Shown here in pieces: positions 42-32,519 of a DNA stretch of 32,747 bases. The DNA lies in IMG/VR virus record IMGVR_UViG_3300031963_000578, positions 1 through 32,747 of that record, one strand, 5' to 3'. The DNA comes from a virus. Its lineage: Duplodnaviria; Caudoviricetes. A program made the position numbers and the translations under genes. Below the pieces are notes generated by a model. The model ran no database searches. It saw only the letters and a list, made by a program, of their open reading frames with translations, and was not told the origin of the DNA. Every line of letters begins with the position of its first letter. Within the stretch, counting starts at the first letter, position 1.

Positions 42-1091
42 ATGGCACTTCCAGAGCAAATTCGTAAACAGACCGAGGCAGTTCAAGAACTGTACGCACA
101 ACTCAATGGTGATGGAACCAATGGCGAGGGACAAAATCCGCCCGCCGATGGTGGAACTCCGCCCACTGAAAGTGAAGCTACTAGAACTCCGACCGCCGAC
201 GCAGCCGCTGACACGAACAGTGCTACTCAGTCATCCAGTGTTGAGCACACAAGTGATGACGGAAAAGGCTCAGAAGAAAATCTAACTCAAAAATACCGTA
301 CCCTCCAAGGTATGTATAACGCGGAAGTTCCACGCCTGCATAGTCAGAACAAAGAACTTTCAGGGCGTTTACAGCAAATGGAGCAGTTGCTGGCAACCAT
401 CTCAGCACAACAATCTTCTGCTCGTAACATGGCGCAAACGCAAGTTGACCCACTTGTTACGGATAAAGATGTTGAGGAATATGGAGAATCACTTGACGTG
501 ATGCGTAAAGTATCTCGTGAGGAGCTAATCCCTGTTGCTCAAAAACTTGTGCAAATTGAGCGGATGCTTCAGCAGTTACAGACTAATGTTGTGCCACAGG
601 TTCAAAACCTCGCACATCGTCAGGCTATGACTACTGAACAGCAATTCTGGTCAGATTTGGCAGGACAAGTACCTAATTGGAAAGACATCAACGAAGACCC
701 AGAGTTTCAATCTTGGCTTCTTGAGTTTGACCCAATGTCGGGTATTAGTCGCCAAACTATCCTAGAGGATGCACAACGCAGCCTTGATGTACGTCGAGTT
801 GGTAGTTTCTTTAAGTCTTGGCTTGAGATTACTGGACAAGCCAATGTTGCTCAAAACACCCGCCGGAATGTGTCTGCTTCCGAATTGGAACGCCAAGTTG
901 CCCCCGGTAAAGGGCGCAGCACAGGTAATCCAACTGGAACAAACGCCAAGACATACAGCCCTGATGACATCAAAAACTTCTTTAGTGATGTTCGTCAAGG
1001 TAAGTACAAAGGGCGCGAGGCAGAGCGTGACCGCATTGAACGCGATATTTTCGCTGCACAGCGAGAAAATCGTATAACTGTTAACGCTTGA
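42..1091 (+). CDS. Capsid scaffolding protein (putative)
   Basis: 349 aa, AGGAG at 28-32. Acidic disordered N-terminus, coiled coil (YRTLQGMYNAEVPRL...), basic C-terminal helix. Lies directly upstream of the capsid gene. Confidence 0.75.
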   Translation: MALPEQIRKQTEAVQELYAQLNGDGTNGEGQNPPADGGTPPTESEATRTPTADAAADTNSATQSSSVEHTSDDGKGSEENLTQKYRTLQGMYNAEVPRLHSQNKELSGRLQQMEQLLATISAQQSSARNMAQTQVDPLVTDKDVEEYGESLDVMRKVSREELIPVAQKLVQIERMLQQLQTNVVPQVQNLAHRQAMTTEQQFWSDLAGQVPNWKDINEDPEFQSWLLEFDPMSGISRQTILEDAQRSLDVRRVGSFFKSWLEITGQANVAQNTRRNVSASELERQVAPGKGRSTGNPTGTNAKTYSPDDIKNFFSDVRQGKYKGREAERDRIERDIFAAQRENRITVNA

Positions 1092-3559: not shown

Positions 3560-3805
3560 ATGGCGCGATACCTACGAAATAAACAAGATGGTTTTATTTA
3601 CGACTATACTGAACTACTAGCTGAAAACCCACTGGTTGAGGAAGTAACTGAGGAAGAAGCATTTCCTGAAAAATTTATTCCAAAGAAACAAACTGGTCGT
3701 AAAACTGGTTTAAAGTTAGAGACTCCAGCAGAAGAAATTCCAGTTGAACCTCCTGTTGAGAACGCCGAACTTAACGCAGATGCATCTAAGGGATTACCCG
3801 AATGA
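3560..3805 (+). CDS. Acidic hypothetical protein
   Basis: 81 aa, AGGAG RBS, ATGA overlap with the next gene. Confidence 0.7.
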   Translation: MARYLRNKQDGFIYDYTELLAENPLVEEVTEEEAFPEKFIPKKQTGRKTGLKLETPAEEIPVEPPVENAELNADASKGLPE

Positions 3806-12429: not shown

Positions 12430-12877
12430 CTTTTCCCTTGTCGAGATGGTTAAATCTGAGACAGCGTTGCGTCACAACATGGACAATACGCCCGGGGAGG
12501 CTGAAATTGAAAACCTTAAAAAACTATGTGAGCAAATTCTTCAGCCTGTTCGGGAACACTACGGCAAAGGAGTTAAAGTCAACTCCGGTTTCCGACATCC
12601 CGAAGTCAACGCCAAAGTCGGTGGCTCCAAAACCAGCGACCACTGCAAAGGCCAAGCGGCAGACATCGAAATCCCCGGTGTCCCCAACGCGGAACTCGCG
12701 GAGTACATCGCAAAAAACTTCTCGTTCACGCAAGTCATCTTAGAGTTTTACACCCAAGGTATTCCTGATTCTGGTTGGGTGCATGTATCGTATGACCCTG
12801 CGAATTTAAAGAAACAAACACTAACTGCTGTCAAACAAGACGGCAAGACTGTGTATTTACCCGGATTGGTTGCCTAA
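12413..12877 (+). CDS. Endolysin, peptidase M15A family
   Basis: 154 aa. L..NFSL.E, SGFR...N..VGG...S.H..G.AAD and WVHVS (H-x6-D...H zinc ligands). Confidence 0.9.
   Translation: MQLTNNFSLVEMVKSETALRHNMDNTPGEAEIENLKKLCEQILQPVREHYGKGVKVNSGFRHPEVNAKVGGSKTSDHCKGQAADIEIPGVPNAELAEYIAKNFSFTQVILEFYTQGIPDSGWVHVSYDPANLKKQTLTAVKQDGKTVYLPGLVA
12507..12743 (+). CDS. Candidate nested (+1 frame) 78-aa amphipathic cationic peptide inside the endolysin
   Basis: GGAGG at 12496-12500, TTG at 12507. Endolysin third positions are skewed to C within the overlap. Confidence 0.55.
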   Translation: MKTLKNYVSKFFSLFGNTTAKELKSTPVSDIPKSTPKSVAPKPATTAKAKRQTSKSPVSPTRNSRSTSQKTSRSRKSS

Positions 12878-12878
12878 T

Positions 12879-15497
12879 ATGGCCGCAGTAAAAATTGTTA
12901 AATTTCTTGGGGAAGCCCCGAAGATTGCTTCGGAGTTGCTGCCTGACGCTGCGGCGCAAGTTGCGTTTAACGTCAAGCTATATTCAGGAGATTTGATTCC
13001 TTACCGCTTACCCTATCTAGCTGGTCACGTAGACCGTGTGGGCACAATTAAGACGTTGTATGCTTTACGTGACCCAAGTAATGGCGACCTAAAGTGGCTA
13101 ACTTGGGCAACTGACGTTGACATTATTACGGCTTCAGCGTCTGAAGATTTGGAACAACGCTTTTACTTCACAGGTGATGGTGTACCTAAAGTAAGCAACT
13201 ATGAGTTGGCTACTGCTACGGGTGTACCTTACCCAAACAATTCTTATGACTTGGGTTTACCCTTACCCGAAACAGTACTTACTACATCATCTACATCGTT
13301 CACCCAAAAAACCTCTACTACTCGGGCACGGGATACAGGTAATTACGCTACTGTAGTTACATCTGCAAACCATGAGTTGCGTACAGGGATGATTATTACC
13401 ATCAGCGGGTTTCCTGCGGCAACAACCAGTGTAGCTACATTTAATGCAACCAATGCTGAAGTGACTGTAGTAAACGACACTACGTTTACCTACTTTAGCC
13501 CGGGCGAGCAGGTTAGCACTACATCTGATACCAACGGTAAAGTATCTCTTGCTGGTAACACAATCCCTCGGAACTATGTCTACACATGGTATACCCCGTG
13601 GGAAGAAGAATCTATTGCGTCTGAACCATCTGACAATTTATATATTAAAGAAGGTCAGTTAGTTACAGTTAGTAATCTACCTACTGCTAAACCTACTGGC
13701 AGTAACTTTGTACGTGGTGTGCGGTTGTACCGTACGCTTGCGTCGTCTGGCGGTACAGAATATTTTCGTCTAGGAACCTTGTGGTTCCCGACTACCACGG
13801 CTCGTGTAAGCCGTGCTGACAACGTGTCTCGTGTGACACTAACTAACCATCACAATCTTGCATTAGATGACCGCTTTAAACTAAGTGGTTGTACTGATTC
13901 GTCGTTTAATATTACAGGCGGTGTTGTCCTTGACATCATTGATGACTATACGTTTGAGTATGCGCAAACCGCAAGTGCCGTAGCAGATAAGGCTGAGACC
14001 GCTGGCACGGTATATCACGATGTTGCAGAATCTTTAGATAAACCTGCTCGCTATTGGGGTGATGGTAGTTACACATTTACCGATGACTTTGATTCACGGA
14101 ATCTGTTTGACATACTGGAGACCAATGAATATGACCCCCCTCCTGAAAATCTTAAAGGTCTTATCGCAGCACAGAATAACATTCTGGTTGGTTTTGATGG
14201 TAATCAGTTATTCTTTTCCGAACCAAATGTTCCACATGCTTGGCCTGCCAAATATGCGCTGACGTTTGAGTCAGACATTGTGGGTGTTGCCTCTGTGGGT
14301 GGATACATTCTTGTTATGACAAAAGAGTATCCATACCAAGTATCCGGTAACAACCCTGCGACTATGGCGTACGCTCGTATTGATACCCTGTATCCTTGCA
14401 TATCTAAACGCTCTATTGTGAACATGGGCTACGGCGTAGCGTATGTAACATATGGTGGTCTAGCTGTATACAACCCATCGGGCGGTATGGACTTGATTAC
14501 AAAGTTTGTGCATGACTGGGATACATGGCCCGAAGCAGTTGATTTGACCAACGTAACAGGTCGTTTTTATAACGGCAAATACTTTGGCTCTGACGGTACA
14601 GCTTCATTTATCTTTGAACGCGATGACCGCATCGGTGGTTACTTTGTTCAAATCAACTATAAATTTACTGCTGCGTGGTACGACCCGCAGTCTAATGACT
14701 TTTACTATATTGCCGATAACCTTGGTAATTTATATGAGTGGGATAAGTCTACACAGCCTTTATCTTCTGCTGAGTGGAAGTCGAAAACCATTGTGACCAA
14801 AGACTTTCTAAACCTTGGGGCGGCTCGAATTATTGCAGACTACGCTGTACCTGACGCTGAGTCTGAAGCGATTGCTGCGTACAACGCTGGCGTACCTGCG
14901 TACAACCTTGGAATATGGAACGAATATAACCATACATCTGTCTCACTGTCTTATGCTCGTGCTTCAGGTGTAGCAACAATCGTAACGGCTACTGCGCACC
15001 AGCTAATTACAGGCTCTCGAATCCGTATTACTGGGTTTACCTCTGGTGTTGGAACAACCTTCAATACTTCTGATGCAGTTGTTACTGTGGTTAACTCTAC
15101 GACATTTACCTACACTAATGCGGGGGGAGATGTATCTGTTGTATCTGACGGGTCTGCAACAATCCAAAGTCTAAAAGGCTTGGGGGATATGAATGGCCCA
15201 TACGACCGCATAGATGCGCAAGGCAACCGCATTACTAACTTTGGCACTTTAAACTCTGTGGTTGTAAATGGAGATAACTATACACGTTCGTTAAGAACCA
15301 TTGAGTCCATACTACCAATTACGTTCCGCCTTTGGGTGGACAAGCAACTTGCCTTCCAAGCTACTGTATCCACGGATGAAGTATTCCGCCTCCCTACAGG
15401 ATACCGTTCCGATACGTTTGAAGTAGGGGTGTCAGGTTCTGCACGAGTTCGGGCTATCCATTTTGGAGAGACCCCCTTTGGATTGAGGACAGCATAA
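12879..15497 (+). CDS. Tail nozzle / tubular-B / stabilisation protein with three inserted beta-barrel domains
   Basis: ATG 12879 preferred. F.G..P N-terminus, YVYTW...W.EES..S, RLYRT, FSEP..PHAWP, W.SK and FRLP.G motifs. Confidence 0.7.
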   Translation: MAAVKIVKFLGEAPKIASELLPDAAAQVAFNVKLYSGDLIPYRLPYLAGHVDRVGTIKTLYALRDPSNGDLKWLTWATDVDIITASASEDLEQRFYFTGDGVPKVSNYELATATGVPYPNNSYDLGLPLPETVLTTSSTSFTQKTSTTRARDTGNYATVVTSANHELRTGMIITISGFPAATTSVATFNATNAEVTVVNDTTFTYFSPGEQVSTTSDTNGKVSLAGNTIPRNYVYTWYTPWEEESIASEPSDNLYIKEGQLVTVSNLPTAKPTGSNFVRGVRLYRTLASSGGTEYFRLGTLWFPTTTARVSRADNVSRVTLTNHHNLALDDRFKLSGCTDSSFNITGGVVLDIIDDYTFEYAQTASAVADKAETAGTVYHDVAESLDKPARYWGDGSYTFTDDFDSRNLFDILETNEYDPPPENLKGLIAAQNNILVGFDGNQLFFSEPNVPHAWPAKYALTFESDIVGVASVGGYILVMTKEYPYQVSGNNPATMAYARIDTLYPCISKRSIVNMGYGVAYVTYGGLAVYNPSGGMDLITKFVHDWDTWPEAVDLTNVTGRFYNGKYFGSDGTASFIFERDDRIGGYFVQINYKFTAAWYDPQSNDFYYIADNLGNLYEWDKSTQPLSSAEWKSKTIVTKDFLNLGAARIIADYAVPDAESEAIAAYNAGVPAYNLGIWNEYNHTSVSLSYARASGVATIVTATAHQLITGSRIRITGFTSGVGTTFNTSDAVVTVVNSTTFTYTNAGGDVSVVSDGSATIQSLKGLGDMNGPYDRIDAQGNRITNFGTLNSVVVNGDNYTRSLRTIESILPITFRLWVDKQLAFQATVSTDEVFRLPTGYRSDTFEVGVSGSARVRAIHFGETPFGLRTA

Positions 15498-18955: not shown

Positions 18956-21145
18956 ATGTCTCTAAATATGGGGCAATTATTAGGCGGTGCTGGTATCGTT
19001 GCGGGTCGTCAGCGGCAAGCTGAAAACGCAGAGATTGAGCAACGTGGTAACTTAATGCGAATCCAAGAGGCTAACCGCCTCATGGAAATTCGTGCTCGTA
19101 TGGGCGAAGGTACAAATGAAATAGCTAACGCTCCACTGCCACAGTTTGTGCAGACTCCGGGTACAACGATTGGTAACCCCAATGCACCTACTGCACCTGC
19201 TCCGGCTGCTGCACCTGCTCCGACTGCTGCACCTGCGTCTGCTACATCTGCGCCTGTTGCACCTCCTGCAAATGTACCTACAACTGCACTTCCGGCTGCA
19301 CCCGCTGCGGGGTTGCGTACTCCTGCACAACTAGCTTCTATACCAACTGACCAGTTGACTACGGCTGAGTTTCAGGCGTTGCCACAACAAGAACGTCTTA
19401 AGCGATTGCAGATAGAAAATGACCGTCGCAAACTTAGTCGTATTGACACGGCTGTTGCTGCGCCACCTGCGGCTGCTTTTGATGTAGTAACACTCCCTTA
19501 CACTGGGGCAGCTACGCTTTTACAAAAAGGTCTTAACGCAGTTGACTTTGCTAGATTTGGTCGTGCCGCAGGTTTTTATGACCCCGATGTAACTAGCGTA
19601 ACAATTCCGGGTGCAGGTTCAATTACACCTTTTACTGACCGCCTACGTAAGTCAGATGCAGAAAACCAACCTATAACAGAAGCACAATTACTCGAGCGTT
19701 TAAAAACAGGCGAAGCTACTAAAGCAAAAGCAGTAGAAACTGAGCGTGTTAAAAATGCAGAGGTTGCCCAGAAGCAAGGTTTGGAAGACTGGCAACTGGA
19801 TGCTAAGGGTAAACCCGTACGTGGTCTAGTAAATAACAATCCCGGCAATATCCGTCCTAGCACTCAGTACACATGGCAAGGTCAGGTTGGGATTGATAAA
19901 GGTGCGAAAGAAGCCGCAGGCTTTGTGCAATTTGCTTCGCCTGAAGCAGGTATCCGTGCCATGACGTTAAACCTGTTGTCTTATGACCAGCAGGGTATTA
20001 ACACAGTACAAGGAATTATTAATCGCTGGGCACCTCCGTCTGAAAATAAGACAGGTGCATATATAAATCAAGTCGCAAAAGAATTAGGTGTTAAACCCAC
20101 TGACACAATAAATCTCAAAGATGCAGCAGTTATGCGTCAGTTGGTTACTTCTATCATTCAATTTGAAAACGGAAAGAACCCATATAATGCTCAAATCATT
20201 GACACAGGCATTGCGCTCGGCTTTAACAAAGAGTCGCCAATTGTTACAGCAAGTACTGGAAAAGCTCCGCCAGTACCTACTCAAGCTCAAACAGTTACTC
20301 AAGCGGTAAACACAGGTACACCTAAAGATGTGGCAACTGCTGCGTCTACTGCTGTACCAGTACAACCTGCTAAAGATGGTGTGATGTACGGCCCTGCTCA
20401 GATTGACGCAAGTGCCCGCAATCCACAAATTCAGCAGTTGCTGACTACTCGTACTATGTTGCAAAAGCAGGTGGCTCTTTATAACCAGTATGGTATGGGC
20501 GATAAAGCCATAGAAGCTGCGGCTAAGATTCAAGCTATTGACCTTGGTATGTACAAGAACCAAGCAGACATCGGGCTTTATGAGGGCGCAACGACTGGTA
20601 ACTTTAGCCGTGCTATGTCTGTGTTGTCTACCTTTACTGGTGCACCGCACCAAGTTCTAAGCCGTAATGATGGCAAGTTTGATTTGTATATTAACGGCAA
20701 GGTAGCAAAAGCTGGTCTTGATGGTACGCAGGTTGAACAACTTGTTCGTACGCAAGTCGACTCCGATTACCGTGCACAGCTTGCTAAACTACAAATTGAG
20801 CGTGGTACAAAACGCTTTGAGACTGATGAAAAAATTCGTGAGAAAACCAGTGAAGAAGTTTTACGTTCTGCTCGTGAGATTCAGCTTGAAATCCTCAAAG
20901 GTAATACTAAACTGGCTGAAGAAAAAATTAAATTGGCTGGCTTTAAACTTATTGGCTCTGGTGCTGGCGATGGTAAAGCCTATTACTCCAACGGTCTAGG
21001 CGATGTATTTATGATTGATGGGCAAAATAAAACAGCCACTATCAATGGTGCTACAGTTGACCTTGGAGTAGTTGCACAACAAGTTTCTGGAGTAGATAGG
21101 AGTATTTGGAGTACCGTGAATCCTCCCCAACAAGTAGTCAGGTAA
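18956..21145 (+). CDS. Internal virion protein with a lysozyme-like NNNPGNIR domain
   Basis: 729 aa, AAGGAG RBS. RG..NNNPGNIR, F.SPE.G.RA, II.RWAP..EN.T..Y and I..FENG motifs. Pro/Ala linker. Confidence 0.75.
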   Translation: MSLNMGQLLGGAGIVAGRQRQAENAEIEQRGNLMRIQEANRLMEIRARMGEGTNEIANAPLPQFVQTPGTTIGNPNAPTAPAPAAAPAPTAAPASATSAPVAPPANVPTTALPAAPAAGLRTPAQLASIPTDQLTTAEFQALPQQERLKRLQIENDRRKLSRIDTAVAAPPAAAFDVVTLPYTGAATLLQKGLNAVDFARFGRAAGFYDPDVTSVTIPGAGSITPFTDRLRKSDAENQPITEAQLLERLKTGEATKAKAVETERVKNAEVAQKQGLEDWQLDAKGKPVRGLVNNNPGNIRPSTQYTWQGQVGIDKGAKEAAGFVQFASPEAGIRAMTLNLLSYDQQGINTVQGIINRWAPPSENKTGAYINQVAKELGVKPTDTINLKDAAVMRQLVTSIIQFENGKNPYNAQIIDTGIALGFNKESPIVTASTGKAPPVPTQAQTVTQAVNTGTPKDVATAASTAVPVQPAKDGVMYGPAQIDASARNPQIQQLLTTRTMLQKQVALYNQYGMGDKAIEAAAKIQAIDLGMYKNQADIGLYEGATTGNFSRAMSVLSTFTGAPHQVLSRNDGKFDLYINGKVAKAGLDGTQVEQLVRTQVDSDYRAQLAKLQIERGTKRFETDEKIREKTSEEVLRSAREIQLEILKGNTKLAEEKIKLAGFKLIGSGAGDGKAYYSNGLGDVFMIDGQNKTATINGATVDLGVVAQQVSGVDRSIWSTVNPPQQVVR

Positions 21146-21153
21146 GGTGAATT

Positions 21154-24100
21154 ATGGCGACTAAAGCCACACAGTCATTTGAAAACCCACTGTACACTAG
21201 CTCTGGCGGGTCACTCGCCAGTGACATGAGTGGCTATACTTTTTTAAATCCTGCGGTTAGTACAGGGTCGGACGCTCTCCAGCAAGGGTTGGCTGACATT
21301 GCCGCAATGGGTGCAAGGGCGCAACAAATAACGCAGTTTGAACTGCCGCAGATTAAACGCCCACCTGCTATTCAGTACAGTCCATCACAGAAAAAACTTG
21401 CTGTACAGGGCGTTACCTTCGATGAAGATGACTCCGAGATGACCCTGCGTGCGGAGGCTTTGCTAGACCAGCCCCCCGTTGGAACACTAAAGGGTGGCGA
21501 CTGGGTAACACTTACACCGCAAGCATACGGGCAGATTACCAGTGGTATCCGTAACCCTAGTCTTGGTCGTCTTATGTCCAAGAACTTTGGTATTGGCGTT
21601 GACCAGTTGCAGTTACTTGCTGGTCGTGGGCTTCAGCTTGCTGGCGCAGAACAAACAGGTCAGGCTATCGTTGACCAGCAGATGGATGACATACGTAAGA
21701 ACCTTCCGTTCCGTCGTGAGTTCTCTGAGATTGATTCTTCTAAAGGTGCTATCGAGTGGCTGGCTGCAACTGTTGCCCAGCAAGGGCCGAACATCCTTGA
21801 GTCTATTGGTGTTGCTGCCGCAGGTTTCTTTGCAGGTGGCGCAGCAGGTGGCCCTTTGGGTGCGGCAGGTGGTGCACTGGCTGGCTTGGCAGGTAAGACT
21901 GCCTTTAAACAATCTGTACTTGCGGCTCTAAAGAAACAAGCAGCAGGCGAAGCATTAGATGTAGCCGAAACTAAACTGCTTAAAGAAGCGGCTGGTATTG
22001 CAGGTGCAACAATTCTTAGTGTGGGTCAGAACTACGCCACTGGTGCGGCTGATATTTATGGTGAGTTCCGTGAACAAGGGTCGGGTGCTGATGATACCAA
22101 CGCTCGTCTTGCTGCTTTGTCAGGCGCAGTTCCTTATGCTGTTCTCGAATCTCTCCCTGAGTTCTTACTAGCTTCCCGTCTATTTGGGCGTGGTGGTATA
22201 TCTGCCAGAGGTGGTTCAACTAACCTACAAGATATTCAGGGTAAAACCTTTCTTGGGACACAAGCCCTTCGTGGTGGGGAACTACTTAAGCGTGGAGCAA
22301 AAGGTGCGGCAGTCGGTGGTACGGCTGAAGGCTTAACTGAACTAGGACAAGAGAGTCTGCTTATTGGTATGACAGGTCAGGACTTTACTGATGCTGATGT
22401 ACAGAACCGACTCCTTGAATCCTTTGCTGCTGGCTTTGGTGTTGGCGGTACGATTGGTGCTGGTGCTAACCTACGACGCGGCCCTATCGGCAAACAACCT
22501 ACCAACTTGTTGAACCCCGGTCAGACTACTGACCCACCTCCTAGCGACTCTCGTGAAGTAACCCCCGTAGGCGGGCCAACCCCCTCAGGTGGTATGGGCG
22601 CACGCCCTGACTTCGTAGCTGGTGCTGCTGGTGTTCGTGCATCTACGCCGGGCGACCGCATCTACACTGGCCCAGTTGAGCCTAATCAGTTTGGTGGTGC
22701 GCAAGGCGTGCTTGACCTCGGTGGTATCCCTGTGGCTGAAGCCAAGGCTCGCAGCATGCAAGGCAATGTGCAACCACAACGGGTATGGGATGTAACCACT
22801 CAATCGTGGCGTGAAGTTAGCCCACAAAGTGCAGATGAACAAGTAGCCGCTAATTTCCAACAGAAACGTCAGGAACGTATTCAATTAGGGCAATACATCA
22901 ATACCCTAAAACAACAACTTGCTAATCCTAATCTGCCCCCACAAGAACGGGCTAATTTAGAACGGCAATTAGCGCAAGCCACTGAAGCGATTCGTACTAC
23001 GACTGATGTTATAGATACCACTCAGTTTGCTAGAGAGCAAGCTGGGCAACCGCCTATTCGGCAAGAATTACCAACAGTAGACCCTAATCAGTTGGCGTTG
23101 CAGTTTGCGCCTCCTGCCCCTAGTGGCGTAGGCTTTACTGACCAAGCTGCACCTATCGTAAACCCTGCTATGCAGCAGGCAATGAACTTGGCACAAAGCC
23201 GTGAAGCTCAGGTACAGGCGCAAGCCGCAGCCGCCGCACAGCGTGAGGCTGACCTTAATAAATTGCAGGCACGTGGGCAAGCCCAACGTCAACTGGATAT
23301 TGCTCAGCAAGCTATGGACGCTGCCCGGGCACAACAGCAACAGACACAGCAACAACTTCCCACGAAACCGTTGCCTATACGGCAGCCTCAGCAGTTGGAA
23401 TTGTTTAGCCGTAGAGAAGCTCCGCGCCCATCCCGTGCTGAAGGTCTACGTCGTGGTGTAGGTACGCAACTTCCTGAGCCAACCACTCCCGTGTTGCCTG
23501 TCCAAGACTTGCGCCGTAGTCCTCAAGTGCCTTTGTTTACTCAACAAGGCGCTCCATCTATGGCCGCTCTCAGAAGTGCAGGGACACAGCAACAAGTTGT
23601 ACCGACAGTGCAGCAAGGCGCTACCCAGATTGCTCCAACAGGTGCACCTGTTACTGCGGTTACTTCTGAAGCAGCTAAGGGTGTGGCACTTAAGAAAGAA
23701 AAGACTGGCACGATTACCTTTGAAGATGGCTCTATATATACAGGGCAATTGAAGAAGGGCGAGCCTAATGGTCAAGGTACTTTGATTTATTCGGACACAT
23801 CCACATACACGGGGCAGTTCAAGAACGGCAAACCACAAGGTAAAGGTCGTTTTGAAGATGCAGATGGTACTGTATTCGATGGTCAATTTGAAGATGGAGA
23901 TTTCATACAACCTGAGGTAACAGAAGATGCCACTCAAAAAGGGAAGCAGCAACAAGGTCGTCAGTCAAAACGTAAGCAAGATAATGCGGGAGTACAAGGC
24001 GGGGGGCAAACTGGGCAACAGCCCACGACCCAAGAGCAAGGCGGCGGCACTGAAACAGGCGGTGGCGGCAAGTCTCTCAAACGCGGGAAGAAGCAAGAAG

Positions 24101-27100
24101 TAACTCCTGACGAGACACCCCCACCCCCACCTCCTAAGGGGGGTAAGGCTCTAAAGAAAGCCCCAGCAAAAAAGACTGAGGCTAAGGCTGAAGCCGCACC
24201 CAAAGCAGCCAAGTTGCAGAAAGGCCCGAGTGGTTTAGCTGCAATGGTTGGTCAGCTTATGGGTACTACGGCTCAACCTACTGTGGTTGAGAGCCAGCCT
24301 AAACGTGGGCCGAATGAAGCCAGTGCTGAAACAGTCGCAGCCAATGAAGAACTCGACATGGCTATCGAGACTGCTGAAACAACTAAGAACGCAGCAGCTT
24401 ATGCCGAGGCTTTGTATGACATTGTGTCTGCTTATGTAACCTCAGCAGACCGTACGTATCTACGTAAGACATCCACAAAGTTCTTGACAGATGAAGGTGG
24501 TGTACCGAAGGGCGACTATGTAGCTGCTCTGCGTGAGATTGCGTTGGATGAAGAATCCATCTCTCCAAAGTCACGCCTGTATGGTTTGTTGGCTGATGCT
24601 GGTTTGTTAAACGATGTGAACGTACTGAAGAACGTACGTGTCCCCGGCGCAAAAACTACACAAGAAGCAGTGGTAGGAGAAACCATTGGGGCAAACTCTG
24701 AGATTACTCCTGAAGAAAGCCTTGCTAACTTCATTGATTCCAATCCACAATGGCCTAACCGCAAGCAGTTGGTTGACAAACTCAAACAACTCTACGGCAA
24801 GATTGACGATGATAATTTTCTTGTCGGTAAACGTGGTCGCATCAAAGACTTCTTTGACACTAATGGGAATCCCTTAGTAACTCAACCTGCTGGTACGTCT
24901 TACTTTATCCCTAATACTGTGGCTGAAGAAAAGACTACCAAGTCTGATTTCGTAGCTAAGCATGAAACCGCCCGTAAAGAATTGCGGGACTTGGAAGATA
25001 CTGAAGACCAGACCACACTGGATGACCTTCAGTTTGACCCATTCTATGACCGCAAGCCAAACAGTGATGATGACTGGCGTGCTTTCCGTTCTAATGGTAA
25101 ACCCTTAACGCCAATGAAAGTTGGCCCACTGCGTTTGTTTGCGGCTCGGGTTATCTCTAAGTATGCTCGTAAGCCACGGGTATCTGTGTTTGCGAATATC
25201 CAAGACATGAAGCGTAGCAACCCTGCCCTGTTTGAAGCAGCAGCAAAGGCTCGTAAAGATGGTGACATCGAGGCGGTCAATGCCGCAGGTATGGCTTGGG
25301 GTGACAACGTGGTTCTGTTTGCAGACCTCATCCACTCTGAAGAACACGCCCGCTTTATCATTGCCCATGAAACTCTTGGGCACGTAGGTTTCCGTGGATT
25401 GTTTAGCAATCAAGCACTTAACAAGATTCTCCAGTTCGTTGCTGATGCTGACCCTCATCTCACAAATGAGGCGATTGTCTACGCAAACGGCAAAGGAATC
25501 CCATTCCTCGAAGCAGTCGAGGAGGTGTTGGCAGACCGTGCTGCTGCCATTGACAATAACACAATCCTTAGATTTTGGAACTGGTTAAAAGACCAACTGA
25601 ATAAACTTGGCTTGTCGTTCAACGATGACGCAGCCCGCTACCTTATCAGCCTATCACGCAAGTACGTGCGTCAGGGCGTTGGGCGTAGTGAAGTCAACAC
25701 CTCTGGTCTCTATAAAGAAATCAACGAGGCACTGGCTACTGAGCAGTCCGACATTGAAGTATTACGCTTTGCCCAGTCTGCCGCCCAAGGTTCTGCTAAC
25801 TTTGCACAGAACTTTGTAAACCGCAACTTTGCCGTTTATGGAAACCTTGAGCGTTCCATCCGTGACATTGTGGATGCTTCACAGAAGTCTGCCGAAATGC
25901 GCAAGCAAGGCAAGGGTGTCCTTGCCAACGTACGTAACGTGGTTCAAAAGGTTCTTGATGGTATTCAAACCCAAGACAACATGGCTCGTAAGTCTAAGGG
26001 CTACTTCAAAATCTTTAGGTTGCTGCAAGACCAAGCGGCTCGTCAAACTGAACTTAAGACCCAGTATGCTGAGATAACCAATATTGCCCATGAAGCTAAG
26101 TTCCTTGGGTTTGGTGAGGGTTTAACGTCTGAGCAAAGTGTCCGTGCCGGTGAGTTGATGGCATACGCTACGCTGTTTAAGATGAACCAATTGTCGGATA
26201 ACGCTATTGCCAAGATGGACAATATCGTGTTCTATGACCCGAACAATCTTGAGCCTATACCTAAGATAAACGTAGACGGATTTAACCAGTTAAAACAGGT
26301 TGGTCGTATGACTCCTGAGGAATTCCGTAGCGGCTTTAAAGTTCAGCAGGGTACTGAAGAACGCCCAATGACTGAGGAATATAAAGCGGAACTGGCTGCG
26401 CAACGGGACAAAGAGCTTGCCATTATGGAAGCAGGTAGGAATCGGGAACTTGCCCGCCTGCAAAAGAAACTGGCTGCGGCTACTAATGAGGAAGCCAAGC
26501 TAGAGTTTGAGCTACGCATTAAGCGTCTTGAGAGTAGATACGCCAGTAATGTAGAAAGTACCAAGCGGTACTACACCAAGCAGATGAACGATAAGACCTA
26601 TGAGGCTCCTCGTCTAACGGATTCTCTTGACTGGTTTAAAGATGTTGATGGTACTGTAATCGAGAATGACGATGGTACTGTGACCTACACAGGTACAAGT
26701 ATTGAGTATCAGGTGTACTTGCAGTTCCACGAGGCTATCTCTAAATCGGCTGCGGATGTATTGATTGGTAAGTATCTTGGTGCTATCCACGAGCAAGCCC
26801 GTGCCATTACCTCTGGTGTTGGGGCATCGTTTAACCAGTCGCTAACTGCACAGGAAACTAAGTTCATTGAGGACATAGTTGAGCAGTACGACCGCATGCG
26901 GCTAAAGGATTCAGGCTACAAGAACAACCGTTTTGAGATGAGCGAGTCTGCCCAAGAGGATGCTAACGAGTGGCTACGTATGAAGTTTGCCCGTGCGTTC
27001 TATACCGACCTTGCCCTGACTGACCTAGCCAAAATGGTCGAAGGCTATACCCCCGCAGAGGTTGATACGATTGTCCGTGGTATGCGCAAGAAACTTCGTA

Positions 27101-29658
27101 CCAAGGTAGACCCTGACATAGATGACATTCGGGATAGTTCTATTTGGGCATTAGAGCATCGCATTGAAGAACGGGCAATGTTTGCCGCCTCTATTAATGA
27201 TGACCAGTTCTACGCCAAACGAACCATTGCTGGTTCGTACGTTCCCCTCATCCGTGAAGGCGATTGGCAAATTCGTATTCAAGCCTACAAGACTGTCAAC
27301 GGACAAGAAGTTCCTATTAAGTTACGCCAAGGGCAACAAGACTCTTTGTTCTACGGCAAGACCGCTAACCAAAAAGATGCCCAAGAAGTTCAAGACGAAC
27401 TGGACAACCTCTTTTCAGGTGAGCATGACATGCGTGATGCCGATGGCAATATGCAGACAGTTAAGTTGCGAGCCATTGCATCGGTTGCAGAACAGACTCC
27501 CGCCCTTGTGGACATCCTCCACTACGACGAGGTAATGTATTCGCTCAGTCGTTTGGGTATCAACATTACCCCTGAGCAACGGACAACCTTGGTTCAGAAA
27601 CTTACTGCACAGAACACTCGTGCCCGTGCAAACCTGAAGCGTTCGGGCGTACCGGGCTGGGATAAAGATGTTGTCAAGAGTGCGTCGGCTTACCTAGAAC
27701 AGCAGGCATATACCGCAGCTAATAAAGAGTTCCGCCATCAGTACGATGAAGTGCTTGATAACCCGTTCAACTGGCAAGGTGACCCTACCCGTTTAGAAGA
27801 ACTGCGGGTTAAATGGGAAAGCAGTACTGGCGAGGCTAAAGAGATTGCCGCTCGGGAGTATTTCCAAGAGAAGTTCTACTACGATAATGCCGTTGAAGTT
27901 ATTGATGGTAAGCGGGTGGAGCGTGGCAACTGGTACAAAGAACGTGCCAAGTCTTTGCTTGACTGGAAAGAATCCACGGGTGACATCGTTCATGCTGACG
28001 ACATTTGGACAAACAACGAATGGTCTGTTGCGGCTCGTACTTGGGCGGCTATTGCCCAACTTGGTGGCTCTATTGCTACTGGTGTCACACAGATGCTTTC
28101 GTTGCCAACCAACTCATGGGCGTACCTCTCAGCCTTTAATCCTAAGAATGGATTTGGCTTAGGGTTAGGCGCAGGTCGTGCCGCCACATTGTTATTTGAC
28201 TATGGTCGCAAAGCAGGTAGCTTCCGTTACGCCAATCTAGACTACATCAAAGGACAGATTAAAGAACTCCAAGATAGTGGTGAAGATAGGAACAAGGATG
28301 GGCTGACGTTTGCCGAACTGAACTTCCTCCAAACCATGACGGAAGAACAACGCCTTGATGCCGCACAATTTAACGCTTTGACTGGTACTAGCCGTGGTCG
28401 TAAGATTACTGGCAATCCAACCGCACAAAAAGTTATTCAGGTATGGATGCTTCCATTCAGTTATTCCGAACAATTTAACCGCCGCACCACACTCCTAGCA
28501 GCATATCGTGGTGAGTATGACCGTCAACGTGCTGCTGGCCTAGCCCACAATGAGGCTGACCTTGCCGCCCGTGCTGCGGCATCTCGTGCCGTTGATGCTA
28601 CCCAAGGGGATTACGCTCAGTACAACCGCCCTGCTTTCTTCCGTGGTGGACTCCAGTCGTTCATCTATATGTACAAGCAGTACCCTATCTTGATGGTTCA
28701 GTTGCTAAAGAACATGAACTATGAAGGTCGTATCATCATGCTCGGGTCGTTGCTCTTGTTATCCGGAGTACGGGGCATACCGGGTTCTGACGACATCTTG
28801 GACATTGTTGATGGTATTGCTCAGCGCCTTGGCTTGAAGGTTGGCTCGATTGAAAAAGAGTTTGCTCGTCTGACCCGTAGCGTATTCGGTGATGAACTAG
28901 CGGCAGAGATTAACCCAATCATCATGCGTGGTTTGCTTGACCACTTCACTGGTCTTTCATTCTCGAATCGCTTAGGTCTTGGGGACATCATCCCCGGAAC
29001 TGGCTTGCTTAAACCATCGGCTACCAAGCAGGAGATTCTGCGTGAGGTGGTAAATATTGCAGGTGCACCAACGTCTTTCTTGGCAGGTGCGTTTGAGTTT
29101 ACGTTTAACACATTGCCTGCGGTAGCCACAGGGCGTAAAGGACTAAGTTCCTTAGCGACTGACTCTCCCTTTACGGCTATTAAGAACTTGGGTACTGCGT
29201 TTAAGTTTTACGACACAGGTGCGATTGTCGACACCAAGGGATATGTTGTAGCGCAGAACGCCACCACTTGGGAAATACTTGGTAAGGCACTAGGTTGGTA
29301 TCCATCCCGTGCTCAGGCACAGATGGACTGGTTGATGGCTGACTCCCAAGAACAAGCATACATGTCTATGATTAAGACTGAAGCTACCCGCCAAGCAGTT
29401 GCCGCTCGATTGTCAGGCGATGTGGATGCTGAGAAGGATGTCAAGGAATACATCAAGTCATGGAACGAAAGCACCAAAGGGACACGCCTAGAGATTCGCA
29501 ACTTTGAGAAAGGTTTAAATCAAGCCTTCCGTGAAGCCAAGAAACCACTAGCGTTACGTGCCCTCAAGTCCTCCGCTAAAGGTGGCAGAGCAGAAGCTAA
29601 GGAGTTGCTACGCATTTACGGCGTAGACGAGGAAACCCTTTCGGGCATCCCCGACTAA
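21154..29658 (+). CDS. Giant polyvalent internal virion/ejection protein
   Basis: 2834 aa. Gly/Ala hydrophobic N-domain, Gln/Pro linker, MORN repeats, HETLGH zincin motif, helical C-domain with TQGDY...NRP..F motif. Confidence 0.8.
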   Translation: MATKATQSFENPLYTSSGGSLASDMSGYTFLNPAVSTGSDALQQGLADIAAMGARAQQITQFELPQIKRPPAIQYSPSQKKLAVQGVTFDEDDSEMTLRAEALLDQPPVGTLKGGDWVTLTPQAYGQITSGIRNPSLGRLMSKNFGIGVDQLQLLAGRGLQLAGAEQTGQAIVDQQMDDIRKNLPFRREFSEIDSSKGAIEWLAATVAQQGPNILESIGVAAAGFFAGGAAGGPLGAAGGALAGLAGKTAFKQSVLAALKKQAAGEALDVAETKLLKEAAGIAGATILSVGQNYATGAADIYGEFREQGSGADDTNARLAALSGAVPYAVLESLPEFLLASRLFGRGGISARGGSTNLQDIQGKTFLGTQALRGGELLKRGAKGAAVGGTAEGLTELGQESLLIGMTGQDFTDADVQNRLLESFAAGFGVGGTIGAGANLRRGPIGKQPTNLLNPGQTTDPPPSDSREVTPVGGPTPSGGMGARPDFVAGAAGVRASTPGDRIYTGPVEPNQFGGAQGVLDLGGIPVAEAKARSMQGNVQPQRVWDVTTQSWREVSPQSADEQVAANFQQKRQERIQLGQYINTLKQQLANPNLPPQERANLERQLAQATEAIRTTTDVIDTTQFAREQAGQPPIRQELPTVDPNQLALQFAPPAPSGVGFTDQAAPIVNPAMQQAMNLAQSREAQVQAQAAAAAQREADLNKLQARGQAQRQLDIAQQAMDAARAQQQQTQQQLPTKPLPIRQPQQLELFSRREAPRPSRAEGLRRGVGTQLPEPTTPVLPVQDLRRSPQVPLFTQQGAPSMAALRSAGTQQQVVPTVQQGATQIAPTGAPVTAVTSEAAKGVALKKEKTGTITFEDGSIYTGQLKKGEPNGQGTLIYSDTSTYTGQFKNGKPQGKGRFEDADGTVFDGQFEDGDFIQPEVTEDATQKGKQQQGRQSKRKQDNAGVQGGGQTGQQPTTQEQGGGTETGGGGKSLKRGKKQEVTPDETPPPPPPKGGKALKKAPAKKTEAKAEAAPKAAKLQKGPSGLAAMVGQLMGTTAQPTVVESQPKRGPNEASAETVAANEELDMAIETAETTKNAAAYAEALYDIVSAYVTSADRTYLRKTSTKFLTDEGGVPKGDYVAALREIALDEESISPKSRLYGLLADAGLLNDVNVLKNVRVPGAKTTQEAVVGETIGANSEITPEESLANFIDSNPQWPNRKQLVDKLKQLYGKIDDDNFLVGKRGRIKDFFDTNGNPLVTQPAGTSYFIPNTVAEEKTTKSDFVAKHETARKELRDLEDTEDQTTLDDLQFDPFYDRKPNSDDDWRAFRSNGKPLTPMKVGPLRLFAARVISKYARKPRVSVFANIQDMKRSNPALFEAAAKARKDGDIEAVNAAGMAWGDNVVLFADLIHSEEHARFIIAHETLGHVGFRGLFSNQALNKILQFVADADPHLTNEAIVYANGKGIPFLEAVEEVLADRAAAIDNNTILRFWNWLKDQLNKLGLSFNDDAARYLISLSRKYVRQGVGRSEVNTSGLYKEINEALATEQSDIEVLRFAQSAAQGSANFAQNFVNRNFAVYGNLERSIRDIVDASQKSAEMRKQGKGVLANVRNVVQKVLDGIQTQDNMARKSKGYFKIFRLLQDQAARQTELKTQYAEITNIAHEAKFLGFGEGLTSEQSVRAGELMAYATLFKMNQLSDNAIAKMDNIVFYDPNNLEPIPKINVDGFNQLKQVGRMTPEEFRSGFKVQQGTEERPMTEEYKAELAAQRDKELAIMEAGRNRELARLQKKLAAATNEEAKLEFELRIKRLESRYASNVESTKRYYTKQMNDKTYEAPRLTDSLDWFKDVDGTVIENDDGTVTYTGTSIEYQVYLQFHEAISKSAADVLIGKYLGAIHEQARAITSGVGASFNQSLTAQETKFIEDIVEQYDRMRLKDSGYKNNRFEMSESAQEDANEWLRMKFARAFYTDLALTDLAKMVEGYTPAEVDTIVRGMRKKLRTKVDPDIDDIRDSSIWALEHRIEERAMFAASINDDQFYAKRTIAGSYVPLIREGDWQIRIQAYKTVNGQEVPIKLRQGQQDSLFYGKTANQKDAQEVQDELDNLFSGEHDMRDADGNMQTVKLRAIASVAEQTPALVDILHYDEVMYSLSRLGINITPEQRTTLVQKLTAQNTRARANLKRSGVPGWDKDVVKSASAYLEQQAYTAANKEFRHQYDEVLDNPFNWQGDPTRLEELRVKWESSTGEAKEIAAREYFQEKFYYDNAVEVIDGKRVERGNWYKERAKSLLDWKESTGDIVHADDIWTNNEWSVAARTWAAIAQLGGSIATGVTQMLSLPTNSWAYLSAFNPKNGFGLGLGAGRAATLLFDYGRKAGSFRYANLDYIKGQIKELQDSGEDRNKDGLTFAELNFLQTMTEEQRLDAAQFNALTGTSRGRKITGNPTAQKVIQVWMLPFSYSEQFNRRTTLLAAYRGEYDRQRAAGLAHNEADLAARAAASRAVDATQGDYAQYNRPAFFRGGLQSFIYMYKQYPILMVQLLKNMNYEGRIIMLGSLLLLSGVRGIPGSDDILDIVDGIAQRLGLKVGSIEKEFARLTRSVFGDELAAEINPIIMRGLLDHFTGLSFSNRLGLGDIIPGTGLLKPSATKQEILREVVNIAGAPTSFLAGAFEFTFNTLPAVATGRKGLSSLATDSPFTAIKNLGTAFKFYDTGAIVDTKGYVVAQNATTWEILGKALGWYPSRAQAQMDWLMADSQEQAYMSMIKTEATRQAVAARLSGDVDAEKDVKEYIKSWNESTKGTRLEIRNFEKGLNQAFREAKKPLALRALKSSAKGGRAEAKELLRIYGVDEETLSGIPD
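23707..23906 (+). repeat. MORN-type repeats (about 3) within the giant protein
   Basis: YTGQLKKGEPNGQGTLIYSDTST / YTGQFKNGKPQGKGRFEDADGTV / FDGQFEDG, 23-aa period. Confidence 0.85.
23927..24103 (+). CDS. Nested (+1 frame) 58-aa basic protein, MPLKKG/DUF6496-like
   Basis: GAGGT at 23914-23918, ATG at 23927, TAA at 24101-24103. MPLKKGSSNKVVSQNVSKIMREYKAGGKLGNSPRPKSKAAALKQAVAASLSNAGRSKK. Confidence 0.8.
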   Translation: MPLKKGSSNKVVSQNVSKIMREYKAGGKLGNSPRPKSKAAALKQAVAASLSNAGRSKK

Positions 29659-32519
29659 ACAACCTTGAGTTGCCCGTGAGTTAGGTCGTTCACCGAATGG
29701 TCAGCGTCATCCAAGATTCCCAATAAACGTGGGTGATTTAGGTTGATGCCGACCACATAGCATTGCGGAATCTTAATACCAACATCTTTACCGAAGTACG
29801 CTTTCTGTGATTTCGGTGTGGCAATAATCCCTTCCATCTCAAACTCTTGGATAAATGCTTTGTAGTCATAGCCACGGGTGCTAAGCCATTTCCGTAGCTT
29901 GGTTCTTTCGACAAGCACTGTGCCACTCTCGAACTTGCCATCGTAGGTTTTGCGGAATAAGTCGTAGCGTACAAGGATGTCTGCAATATACGGGCGATTG
30001 TTGTCCCGCATTGGCTTCTGTCCGGGGGTGTGCATGACAGTCAAAGTTGCATCCATGTTCTCGTTGATGAACTCGCCCAGTGCATCGAAGGCATCCATAC
30101 GATTGGTTGCCGCAGATACTTTCATGGACTTCAGTTCACCTAGTGCCCATTCAGTTGCGTCTTGATAGTCATACTGGATAAGCCCATACTCCTTTGCCAA
30201 CTGGTTACCCAAGTCTGAAAGCACAACACCGACTTCCCAAAAGCGCTCGTCACCAGTAAAGCTAACACCATATTTCTTAGGGAACTCATTGATAGCGTGG
30301 TCAAGCATTGCCTTCAAACCATCTATACCCAACGGCATTAAGTGCCTAATAAACTCCTGCCCTACTGTGCCGTAGTTGTTCATTAGGAACGCATGTATCT
30401 GCCGACCTACTTGGCTACCCTTGGTAAACAGTGGGTGCGGTGCAACATTAAACTCAAGCAGTCGAGCGAGCTTGGCGTCCGTAGCATGACCACCTGCGTA
30501 CAACATACTGTGCAGTGATTCGTTGGTCGATACAGTCATGGTGGTTGCCCACTCTTTGGTTGCTCGTTCTTCTGCACTACGATTCAAACGTGCCTTGTCC
30601 CTACCCTGCGATGTCCAGTAGATAAGGTCGCCTGCTTCTTCACGGTCAAGCATCGTCAGTTCGTCTACTGTCATGGGTAGGTTGCCATGCAAAGAAAGAC
30701 GTGAGAACAAACTGTTCTGTGTGAACTTACCACCGAAGTGGAGTTGGTCAGGGTTGCCCCATATGGATTGCATCATGTACTGACCGAGCGTCTTACCGCC
30801 ACCAGTCTTGCCATACAAGGACAGAATCAAACCTTTCAAGCCACTGACCTTGAGCAATGGTGTTGCAAATGAGAAGCCAATCAGGAACTTGTGGAGTTTT
30901 AAATCGGCAGAGTCAAGGATACGGGTGAAGTTAACCCATTCTTGCAGGTCTCCTTTTGTGCCGTACATGTCCTCAGATAGCTTGCCGACCCCTTGGGCTA
31001 GGTTGACTTGCTCAATATTTACTGTGCCGTTGGAGTCCCGGCGAAGAAGCGAACTGCCAATCACAAACTCGTTGTAGTTTGATTTCCAACCCATTGATGA
31101 GTACAAGTTTGTTAGCCCTCGGCGTTGCTTCAACTCCTCCATGTATGAACGTAAAAGCATTTGGAAGTTTTCCGTTTGTGACTTGTTAAAAAGAAGGATG
31201 CCTTGGTCTGCGATTGTGGTAGAGAAGTCACGGCTACCATGTGCTAAGTTGGCTTGACGCATTACCAACTCAGTCCACCCAACGTGTGGGCGATTCCACA
31301 TAAAGCGAACTACCTCATAGCCAAGTCCTTCATCCTTACCATACCCCACTGGGTATAGGTCGAACTTGCATACGTCAATATCTGTTTCTTCAATGACCAT
31401 CTTCATACCATCAGTGGTACGTTTAAATGGTTTGGGTACTGGCACTACTGCGGCAATAGGGTCAACCATAGCCGCCATTGATTTGACCTCAGCTAGTTGT
31501 GTACCTAGTCGTGCGGGGCTACCAATCTTGTCCTTAAACTTACAACCCTTACAACCCTCAGGTCGCTCAAGCATAAACTTCTCGCACAGTGTTGGGCCTG
31601 TTGCGCCGTTCTTCCAGTTCTCAATCTTGGTGGTTACTTCACTCTCATTAAAGTTTGCGTATTCTTTACTCCATTTAATTGCAGTAGCTACTGGCTCTTG
31701 GCAATAGGCGGCGACACCCATCATCTTCCACCAAAAGGGTTCAGTCACATCGTTCTGATTCTCAGCACCCCATTTAATTTGTTGGCATCCTGCGACCACT
31801 CGCTCTGCATTTGCAGGTTGGTATTCATGCTTGACTGCCATAGCATCCAACAACGTATTGTTGCGTGTTGGTTGTGCGGGTGGCTCATAAGATGAGCCAT
31901 GAGTAAACGGCTCGAGTACTGCCCACAACTGGTTGTAGGTTACATCGGGAGCATCTCTTAACAAAACCGCAGTCTTATTACCCTTGGGATTCACACACCC
32001 AATCGGTCTAAGAATACGTGCGTTATCTCCTGTCACACCAATATCAGGTGTGAACCCTTTGTCCAAGCAAGCCGCCTTCAGTGCGTTAGCCAATGGCTTC
32101 CACTGCGCAGGCGCAACCGCCGTATCAAGAATCCAGTAAACGTGTAGCCCATTACCAGACGAAACAATCATCGGCATGGGTAGCCCAACATCTTTGACAA
32201 AGGCAATCAGAGCCTTGGCCCCTTCGCTTGCATCAATGAATGGCTTTGGCTTTCCATTCTTACCAATACCGCAGTCAACGTCTATCGCAAGTACCTTTGT
32301 ACGCTCAACGAACTCCTGCTTCCTACGCTTCTCCGTAAATGTAGAGATGGCGTAGTACGTGTTCTGCCCCCTGTCATTCAGAGCCTGTGCAACTTGTGCG
32401 AGTTTTTCTACCGAATCAAAGTAACCATGTCTTGGTGCAGGGTTGTCCCGCTCAAAACTAGCTATGCAATACAATCCTTCAGTTGGTAGTACTCGCTGAA
32501 AAAAACTCAGCGTGTCCAT
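29655..32519 (-). CDS. Primase-helicase (AEP/RepB-like primase + Cys cluster + DUF927 + P-loop helicase)
   Basis: 954 aa. IDVD, SSGNGLHVYW and RILR.IG..N.K motifs, C..F....P.GC.GC cluster, MGW, Walker A GKTGGGKT, Walker B TVDE. Confidence 0.85.
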   Translation of the reverse strand: MDTLSFFQRVLPTEGLYCIASFERDNPAPRHGYFDSVEKLAQVAQALNDRGQNTYYAISTFTEKRRKQEFVERTKVLAIDVDCGIGKNGKPKPFIDASEGAKALIAFVKDVGLPMPMIVSSGNGLHVYWILDTAVAPAQWKPLANALKAACLDKGFTPDIGVTGDNARILRPIGCVNPKGNKTAVLLRDAPDVTYNQLWAVLEPFTHGSSYEPPAQPTRNNTLLDAMAVKHEYQPANAERVVAGCQQIKWGAENQNDVTEPFWWKMMGVAAYCQEPVATAIKWSKEYANFNESEVTTKIENWKNGATGPTLCEKFMLERPEGCKGCKFKDKIGSPARLGTQLAEVKSMAAMVDPIAAVVPVPKPFKRTTDGMKMVIEETDIDVCKFDLYPVGYGKDEGLGYEVVRFMWNRPHVGWTELVMRQANLAHGSRDFSTTIADQGILLFNKSQTENFQMLLRSYMEELKQRRGLTNLYSSMGWKSNYNEFVIGSSLLRRDSNGTVNIEQVNLAQGVGKLSEDMYGTKGDLQEWVNFTRILDSADLKLHKFLIGFSFATPLLKVSGLKGLILSLYGKTGGGKTLGQYMMQSIWGNPDQLHFGGKFTQNSLFSRLSLHGNLPMTVDELTMLDREEAGDLIYWTSQGRDKARLNRSAEERATKEWATTMTVSTNESLHSMLYAGGHATDAKLARLLEFNVAPHPLFTKGSQVGRQIHAFLMNNYGTVGQEFIRHLMPLGIDGLKAMLDHAINEFPKKYGVSFTGDERFWEVGVVLSDLGNQLAKEYGLIQYDYQDATEWALGELKSMKVSAATNRMDAFDALGEFINENMDATLTVMHTPGQKPMRDNNRPYIADILVRYDLFRKTYDGKFESGTVLVERTKLRKWLSTRGYDYKAFIQEFEMEGIIATPKSQKAYFGKDVGIKIPQCYVVGINLNHPRLLGILDDADHSVNDLTHGQLKVV

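Follow-up and report, generated by a model that had tools for sequence, protein, structure and literature searches.

The window analysed in this study is the whole of the IMG/VR virus record IMGVR_UViG_3300031963_000578 (32,747 nt, positions 1 to 32,747; Duplodnaviria, Caudoviricetes), a virion-gene region of a tailed phage in which major head, tail fibre, holin, endolysin, internal virion and transglycosylase-like genes lie upstream of a giant gene. This giant gene (21154..29658, plus strand) encodes a predicted polyvalent-type ejection (internal virion) protein of 2,834 amino acids (aa), and within it, in the +1 frame, lies a small basic gene (23927..24103, plus strand) that belongs to a phrog_2423-like family, referred to here as family A. 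The original prediction, which was made from the letters of the window, had described a Shine-Dalgarno (SD)-like GAGGT at 23914..23918 (plus strand), an 8-nt spacer, an ATG at 23927, 58 codons and a TAA at 24101-24103, together with a product holding 11 K, 3 R and 1 E, and all of these were found as described. The 58-aa product contains 0 D and has a net charge of +13, and the duplex with the anti-SD sequence was calculated as -6.9 kcal/mol at the nested start versus -5.9 kcal/mol at the giant's own start. Over the same bases (23926..24105, plus strand), the giant reads aa 925-984 (DATQKGKQQQ...) as a Q/G/K/T-rich linker without Cys or aromatic residues, directly after its MORN repeats. Taken as a whole, the locus is best explained, with a probability of about 0.8, as an exchangeable nested gene in the linker of a giant predicted ejection protein, the product being likely an accessory basic protein.

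The small gene is almost certainly real and under selection, a judgement that draws on sequence comparison throughout, and it is likely translated from its own ribosome-binding site by internal initiation on a late mRNA. Synonymous shuffling of the host gene proved to be a poor control, since 82 of 500 shuffles keep an open frame with an ATG here and an open frame alone is not rare; it is homology, frame-specific selection and conserved start signals that place the gene beyond chance. Residues 1-22 of the family-A peptide matched the phrog_2423 profile significantly (E 9.6e-8). The long A form has approximately 15 additional central residues compared with the short form, and short-form relatives matched the same profile over 46-49 residues, which is nearly full length, with E values to 5e-20. 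The family had been named as DUF6496-like in the original prediction. The DUF6496 profile (PF20106), however, gave the window peptide 17.6 bits (E 0.0052), below the gathering cut-off of 24 bits; it appeared at E 0.1 in 14 of 68 family-A members (best E 2.2e-4) and on 13% of the members of the Atlas neighbour cluster, which suggests that DUF6496 is at most a distant relative of family A. The existence of stand-alone homologues, by comparison, was borne out. At least 470 related viral stretches were found in the part of the collection scanned, and a same-phase position inside a giant was found for 7 of the 80 best viral loci, the other 73 being non-nested. Here and below, family scans comprise the best 80 loci each of longer lists, which are top-ranked samples and not frequencies. 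A tblastn search of the 58-aa peptide against GenBank phages gave no match, relatives there being reached via the short forms, and no second copy of the small gene was found in the window. It had also been claimed that gene callers miss the gene. This holds for a copy in a cultured phage described below, which is unannotated, but five proteins of 59-74 aa with 83-95% identity are present in the protein collection, and callers do sometimes find the gene. One sigma-70-like site was found in 22500-24600, a number equal to chance. The RNA runs were usable as assembled contigs only; run X19 holds a 190-nt contig at 23977-24166 without differences and run X18 holds scattered pieces, and neither counts as evidence of transcription or translation.

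Comparison with relatives of the giant revealed that the position is shared by two gene families. From 160 loci gathered with two host domains, 84 distinct ones with the linker covered were kept, near-copies included, and these carry family A in 32 cases, an unrelated family B (MPFKS...) in 34 and neither in 18. The 66 occupants are all in the +1 phase relative to the giant's N part, and A and B never occur together at a locus. Family B matches phrog_1375 weakly (E 3e-5 to 0.09), and the A and B profiles are unrelated (hhalign probability 3.6%). The exchangeable segment of the window (23932..24097, plus strand) is replaced by a family-B gene in L106, L108 and L109, with ATGCC and AAGTAA as common ends. 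In L106, both host domains agree with the window at 99% identity; the SD and ATGCC are common to the two, and B then follows up to the common AAGTAA; L108 and L109 differ from L110 by the same exchange. The swap junctions recur as loose ends in assemblies of independent runs, and a chimera is therefore less likely. Moreover, the independent runs contain other phages in which different upstream DNA leads into the A gene at its ATG. On the tree of the host C-module (72 rows, 12 shorter rows being left out), well-supported branches force at least 13 changes of slot state for A, at least 17 for B and at least 11 for empty. The cassette bases of L119 and L133 are 97% identical and their flanks 51-64%, a pattern that suggests transfer or conversion between distant giants. 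Four empty loci were compared with a filled relative; among these, L213 shows a clean 201-nt in-frame loss and L242 retains the 3' end of B, and both are deletions. Filled genomes that were at least 90% complete contained exactly one occupant in 5 of 5 cases, and five genomes with an empty slot, two of them complete, had no A or B anywhere. No third occupant family was seen in the empty linkers listed. In place of the single captured gene that had been envisaged, these comparisons make it very probable that the linker holds a swappable slot, of which the occupant is exchanged or lost, rather than a fixed one-off capture. The giants of L163, L224 and L239 are each divided into an N gene and a C gene, separated by 4-5 kb of other genes; the slot is empty in L163 and L224, and the 928-aa N gene of L239 contains B, which is nested 44 codons ahead of the N-gene stop. 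A weak B-profile match in a window frame from approximately 12577 (E 0.027) was taken as chance.

Selection in the overlap is concentrated on the small frame. Over 17 distinct nested copies, the ratio of nonsynonymous to synonymous change (dN/dS) was 0.21 in the small frame versus 2.04 in the host frame, and across 55 columns the variable ones numbered 18, 18 and 44 by small-gene codon position, the change being concentrated at third positions. These 17 copies had been found by a pattern built from the gene, and the test was repeated on A copies chosen through host domains, for which pairs with at least 70% identity gave 0.19-0.29 in the small frame versus 2.05-2.16 in the host frame. The proposal that the nested gene is the conserved partner thus gained support. 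Furthermore, several loci in which the small protein is 83-98% identical to that of the window (45-53 of 54 residues) have a host peptidase domain down to 37-46%. The start signal is conserved as well. In the window's giant family, an SD duplex of -5 kcal/mol or stronger precedes the A start in 29 of 30 cases and the B start in 32 of 33, compared with approximately 10% of the other +1 starts (449/4,301 and 522/4,889). In all, 61 of 63 nested starts have an SD-like site, and there are 57 different upstream 15-mers among the 63.

The host frame, in turn, is constrained in composition. For A, the host-frame dN/dS equals the value in the non-coding frame of free A genes (2.0-2.4), and so there is no sign of site-specific conservation; for B, the nested host-frame value is approximately 2.2 versus 3.7-3.9 in the free control, which gives a hint of mild constraint. 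T at the third positions of the small gene, which are the first positions of host codons, is avoided even where no stop would result. Nested A copies had 19 such T versus 234 expected and nested B copies 37 versus 207 and 50 versus 212, compared with 503 versus 453 and 234 versus 236 in free genes. Sorted by the host residue that would be made, the counts seen and expected were 0/139 for Cys, 1/50 for Trp, 2/39 for Tyr, 7/92 for Phe and 93/314 for Ser, and host-frame Cys and aromatic codons together numbered 10 versus 320. Because the avoidance tracks the host residue, being strong for Cys and the aromatics and less so for Ser, it indicates that the giant needs a hydrophilic spacer and not a particular sequence, composition alone being constrained. 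The earlier description of the linker as a by-product of the nested gene is accordingly half right: the host frame absorbs the change, but selection on its composition acts against Cys and aromatic residues. Stops, Cys and aromatics can always be avoided in the +1 phase, whereas in the other phase a mean of 1.4-2.3 such residues per gene is forced, which is why all nested copies are found in +1.

These data can be assembled into the following mechanism. Ribosomes starting at the internal SD and ATG would make the 58-aa protein, and ribosomes translating the giant would read the same bases as a hydrophilic spacer; avoiding T at third positions of the small gene would remove every stop and nearly every Cys or aromatic codon from the host frame. 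Cassettes adapted in this manner would spread by recombination between co-occurring phages, with A exchanged for A within a conserved island and A for B through near-identical flanks, and in-frame deletions would empty the slot.

Nested copies are not confined to the giant family of the window. The family-B scan gave 34 nested loci, and nested B occurs in at least five host groups not linked by BLASTP, namely AT-rich giants (24 loci), the window's family, DarB-like proteins, a 290-420 aa acidic protein and an internal-virion-like protein. L323, L324 and L325 do not figure in the nested-B counts, since their open frames lack a host start and were put down to chance. For family A, further scans found 13 nested loci among 80 in metagenomes and, with the short form, 2 among 80, all of them +1. 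This short form has matches in 477 GenBank phage records from many groups, with 303 Pseudomonas records among the matches, and it is estimated that A patterns are present in about 11,000 viral stretches and B patterns in about 2,600. One DNA pattern returned 24 nested loci of 24, a circular result, as the pattern had been designed from nested copies, and it was not used as a frequency. Among the 68 records matching as Elemo phages, one was examined: Flavobacterium phage elemoE_10-3D (MT497078, L348) contains an unannotated 42-aa B gene (3583-3711), placed +1 within the gene for a 3,667-aa structural protein. Its codons end in T in 3 of 42 cases, versus 39% in the host gene, and the region upstream is A-rich and lacks an SD. 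The suggestion that the linkers of other giants hide such genes was thus upheld; by homology, the linkers of several unrelated giants contain them and annotation can miss them. In L294, a single 2,568-aa giant has two B-like segments in its +1 frame (at approximately 5479 and 6001), of which the upstream one is without the usual MPFK start. In L332 (3862) and L296 (5177), B is nested near residue 60-70 of the 290-420 aa acidic protein; in L332 this host protein stands between genes that resemble portal and major capsid genes by eye, and it is scaffold-like with no PHROG match. The family-B motif also forms the N-terminus of 190-220 aa proteins in L306, L309, L313, L316, L326, L337 and L341.

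With regard to function, AlphaFold predicted two helices for A (residues 9-25 and 38-53; predicted local distance difference test score, pLDDT, 83.5) and two helices for B (pLDDT 87.6). No informative solved structure in the PDB was found for A or B by sequence or fold (best Z 4.5; none at E 0.001), and the BFVD matches of the small protein are uncharacterised phage proteins. A sequence match to the Arc repressor (E 0.009) covers 21 residues and was not accepted. The genomic context of free copies is more telling. Among non-nested A genes, 56 of 73 lie directly after the portal gene, and others follow a P22-like coat gene or stand between head morphogenesis and major head genes. In L041 and L043-L046, a 161-aa protein encoded immediately downstream of a prohead protease (Peptidase_S77) has the A motif as its N-terminus. 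In Acinetobacter phages, matches of short A that begin at residue 1 coincide with genes labelled head maturation protease, which suggests an N-terminal fusion or tag. On the basis of this context, the net charge of +13 and the mutual exclusion of A and B, it may tentatively be proposed that the product is an accessory DNA-binding, charge-neutralising protein in the head interior; A and B would probably do the same job. The 161-aa A-fusion protein has a weak match to the ArfA family of Pfam at residues 98-113 (E 2.4e-4, below the cut-off).

Several observations weigh against the reading of an exchangeable nested gene with a role in the head. When all host-selected A pairs are taken, including deep ones, the asymmetry of selection is weaker (dN/dS 0.44-0.50 versus 1.3), and the pairwise counts are not independent, near-copies being included. 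The B starts of the AT-rich giant group show no SD enrichment (7/33 versus 17%); Bacteroidota hosts are not known to use the SD. Slot state is somewhat clustered on the host C-module tree, with 28 changes versus a shuffled mean of 34.6, and high cassette identity in distant hosts can partly reflect double constraint and not transfer. The product is not essential, because 18 of 84 loci lack A and B and two complete genomes are without either. Furthermore, the A gene of RSB1 (gp47) follows lysis genes, the A-family gene of phiCbK (L350:5001-5159) lies within a tRNA cluster, and free B genes have no dominant head-gene neighbour.

The order in which the two frames arose bears on several alternatives. 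Wider phylogenetic distribution has been employed as a criterion for the ancestral frame, as set out in PMC8227390, and it is the small frame that is wider here, with A in 477 GenBank phage records and the host-frame peptide in 45 giants, the latter search covering proteins of 1,558-4,960 aa. The capture of a pre-existing gene, which the original prediction had assumed, is supported by this distribution, but the small-protein trees (58 and 45 columns) leave most forks open and do not settle the direction, and free A genes are stop-free in the needed host frame in 0 of 65 cases. For B the figure is 1 of 40, and the other phase is open in 14/65 and 11/40. We consider it probable that the small gene is older than the overlap, and similarly probable, since free genes rarely satisfy the open-frame requirement, that entry was rare and old, perhaps by read-through extension of an upstream gene (compare L239), and was followed by the spread of adapted cassettes. 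The same open-frame counts can be turned around, for every nested copy uses precisely the phase that free genes hardly leave open. If A and B had arisen by overprinting within Glu/Gln/Lys-rich linkers, whose +1 frame gives Lys-rich peptides, the free and fused copies would be escapees, and the acidic or Gln-rich linkers of giants would be both nursery and marketplace, from which two families, circulating as frame-compatible cassettes among unrelated giants, escaped as thousands of free genes and as head-protein N-termini. Nested A copies are diverse, a single clade of nested A is not rejected (approximately unbiased test, p 0.87), and 75% of the de novo frames of eukaryotic viruses, more for internal overlaps, are reported as +1 in PMC8227390. 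Such an origin is nonetheless improbable. Family A is far commoner outside giants (the 477 records, the approximately 11,000 stretches with patterns and a nested share of 2 among the best 80), no free A carries the T-poor signature of nested copies (lowest free ratio 0.43 versus at most 0.12 in nested ones), long and short A forms are each found both nested and free, and a single clade of nested B is weakly rejected (p 0.03). The phase bias, in addition, is also explained by the Cys and aromatic residues forced in the other phase (mean 1.4-2.3 per gene versus 0).

Alternatively, the small gene may have stood between separate N- and C-module genes that were fused by read-through, as has been proposed for the hepatitis B virus (HBV) polymerase spacer. 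The split giants L239, L163 and L224 are in keeping with this route, as are six free A genes that follow an 891-aa gene in an apparent ejection cluster. On the host tree, however, L163 lies deep among fused giants, so that its split looks derived, and L239 falls outside the tree; moreover, giants with N parts unconnected by BLASTP have the slot in the middle of the linker. The fusion is somewhat unlikely, and it would be compatible with the exchangeable nested gene as its route of first entry. A different objection is that the host linker or an RNA signal is what is conserved, the +1 frame being its shadow. The host-frame peptide looks conserved, being matched by 45 giant proteins, and it avoids Cys and aromatics, but its dN/dS of approximately 2 is no different from the value that free A genes show in their non-coding frame, A and B alleles have entirely unlike host peptides, the peptide can be deleted, free homologues exist, and the start region is unstructured (z +0.85). 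The linker as the conserved element is refuted by the frame-specific dN/dS and the A/B exchange, and this objection as a whole retains next to no likelihood. As to what the products do, they could instead be host-directed effectors, acting in anti-defence or binding ribosomes or RNA, made late or ejected, with swapping as the mark of an arms race. Exchange and loss are indeed frequent, polyvalent proteins are treated as conflict cargo in PMC5512222, and some host giants match a DarB-like PHROG. Purifying selection is strong, however, the slot holds only two families, and A has head-gene neighbourhoods and protease-linked fusions; an effector role, the chief alternative to a head protein, is on balance doubtful. 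The exchangeable gene nested in a spacer remains the reading that best accommodates these data.

Nested genes in linkers are already known; exchangeable, losable and also free-standing occupants are not described in the sources compared here. As in lambda, where Rz1 lies within Rz (PMC6139136), a small gene of a tailed phage is fully embedded in +1 over a flexible linker of the outer gene. According to the same source, spanins occur in embedded, overlapped and separated forms and are often missed in annotation (196 o-spanins not identified), but they are an obligate interacting pair, are found in +1 or -1 without bias, and no family is described that mixes embedded with separated forms. Here, in contrast, the same family is nested or free, is always +1, is dispensable, is replaced by an unrelated family and has no lipoprotein or membrane features; neither an Rz1-type lipobox Cys nor a hydrophobic signal was found in the small peptide, which sets it apart from embedded spanins; these, moreover, are nested in the gene of an inner-membrane protein, the outer product here being a protein of 2,834 aa. 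The HBV polymerase spacer over Pre-S and the ASGV (apple stem grooving virus) polyprotein linker over the movement protein, both described in the accessible part of PMC8227390, resemble the present case in that an inter-domain linker lies over a better conserved gene and evolution is asymmetric, and the linker is proposed as the de novo frame. They differ in being single fixed overlaps of small eukaryotic viruses, for which that part of the source does not describe occupant exchange or free-standing copies. In the profile libraries, phrog_2423 (A) and phrog_1375 (B) are of unknown function, and nesting carries no mention there or under the Pfam family DUF6496. No paper on a swappable nested-gene slot was found in the full text of PMC and bioRxiv, in a search that was aimed in part at DUF6496 and at nested genes in phage giants, subscription journals lying largely outside it.

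Overlapping genes tend to be regarded as fixed pairs, each constraining the other; the overlap described here behaves instead as a modular slot in several unrelated giant families. It offers a naturally occurring series in which to measure the sharing of selection between a linker frame and a nested gene, a functional hint for two large uncharacterised phage families, and a detector for missed genes, which would look for T-poor third positions in +1 and Lys-rich products inside acidic or Gln-rich linkers. Moreover, with Flavobacterium phage Elemo as a cultured carrier, translation, packaging and knock-out are open to direct test.

The giant itself is predicted to be an ejection protein from its gene position and from analogues such as phi24B gp47, a 2,811-aa protein found in virions and proposed as an ejection protein (bioRxiv 10.64898/2026.04.10.717836). 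Upstream of it lie a virion gene with a phrog_511 match (12870-15497) and a transglycosylase-like gene (18956-21145; phrog_873/7182). Polyvalent proteins with a metallopeptidase (MPTase) domain are described in PMC5512222 as giant late-region proteins with an HEXXXH-type motif; the words linker and overlap are absent from its main text. Their zincin-like MPTase signature, HEXXH or HEXXXH with a downstream Glu, is present in the window giant as HETLGH (25366..25383, plus strand; aa 1405-1410) with EAVEE downstream, and the H, E, H and two E are invariant across 8 aligned relatives. The giant differs from polyvalent proteins in having no Pfam LPD match, MORN being the sole domain found in the scan, although the L018 host has LPD38. 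A phrog_11358 match covers its C-terminal region (28339..29535, plus strand). No GenBank phage relative of its peptidase domain was found by tblastn, and in GTDB the host domain retrieved 5 weak loci (25-31% identity), none with a family-A match.

The MORN-repeat insert of the host (23689..23898, plus strand; aa 846-915 by phrog_7324; also Pfam MORN) adjoins the slot in a minority of relatives (in the window, 23689-23926) and brings its own SD, and relatives without MORN have a different SD within a Lys-Lys-Gly peptide. This adjacency is incidental, because a MORN-like motif lies within 100 aa upstream in 10 of 63 slot-filled relatives. In the L170/L252 entry (L170), the giant is broken by a frameshift, and in L157 it ends early at 2,171 aa; both may be assembly errors. 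The relatives P0015 and P0031 of the approximately 2,800-aa giant carry the source label 'ribosomal protein L33', an apparent mis-annotation. Finally, a gene for a 954-aa DUF927 primase/helicase-like protein (29655-32519, minus strand) converges on the giant, and the stop codons of the two genes overlap.

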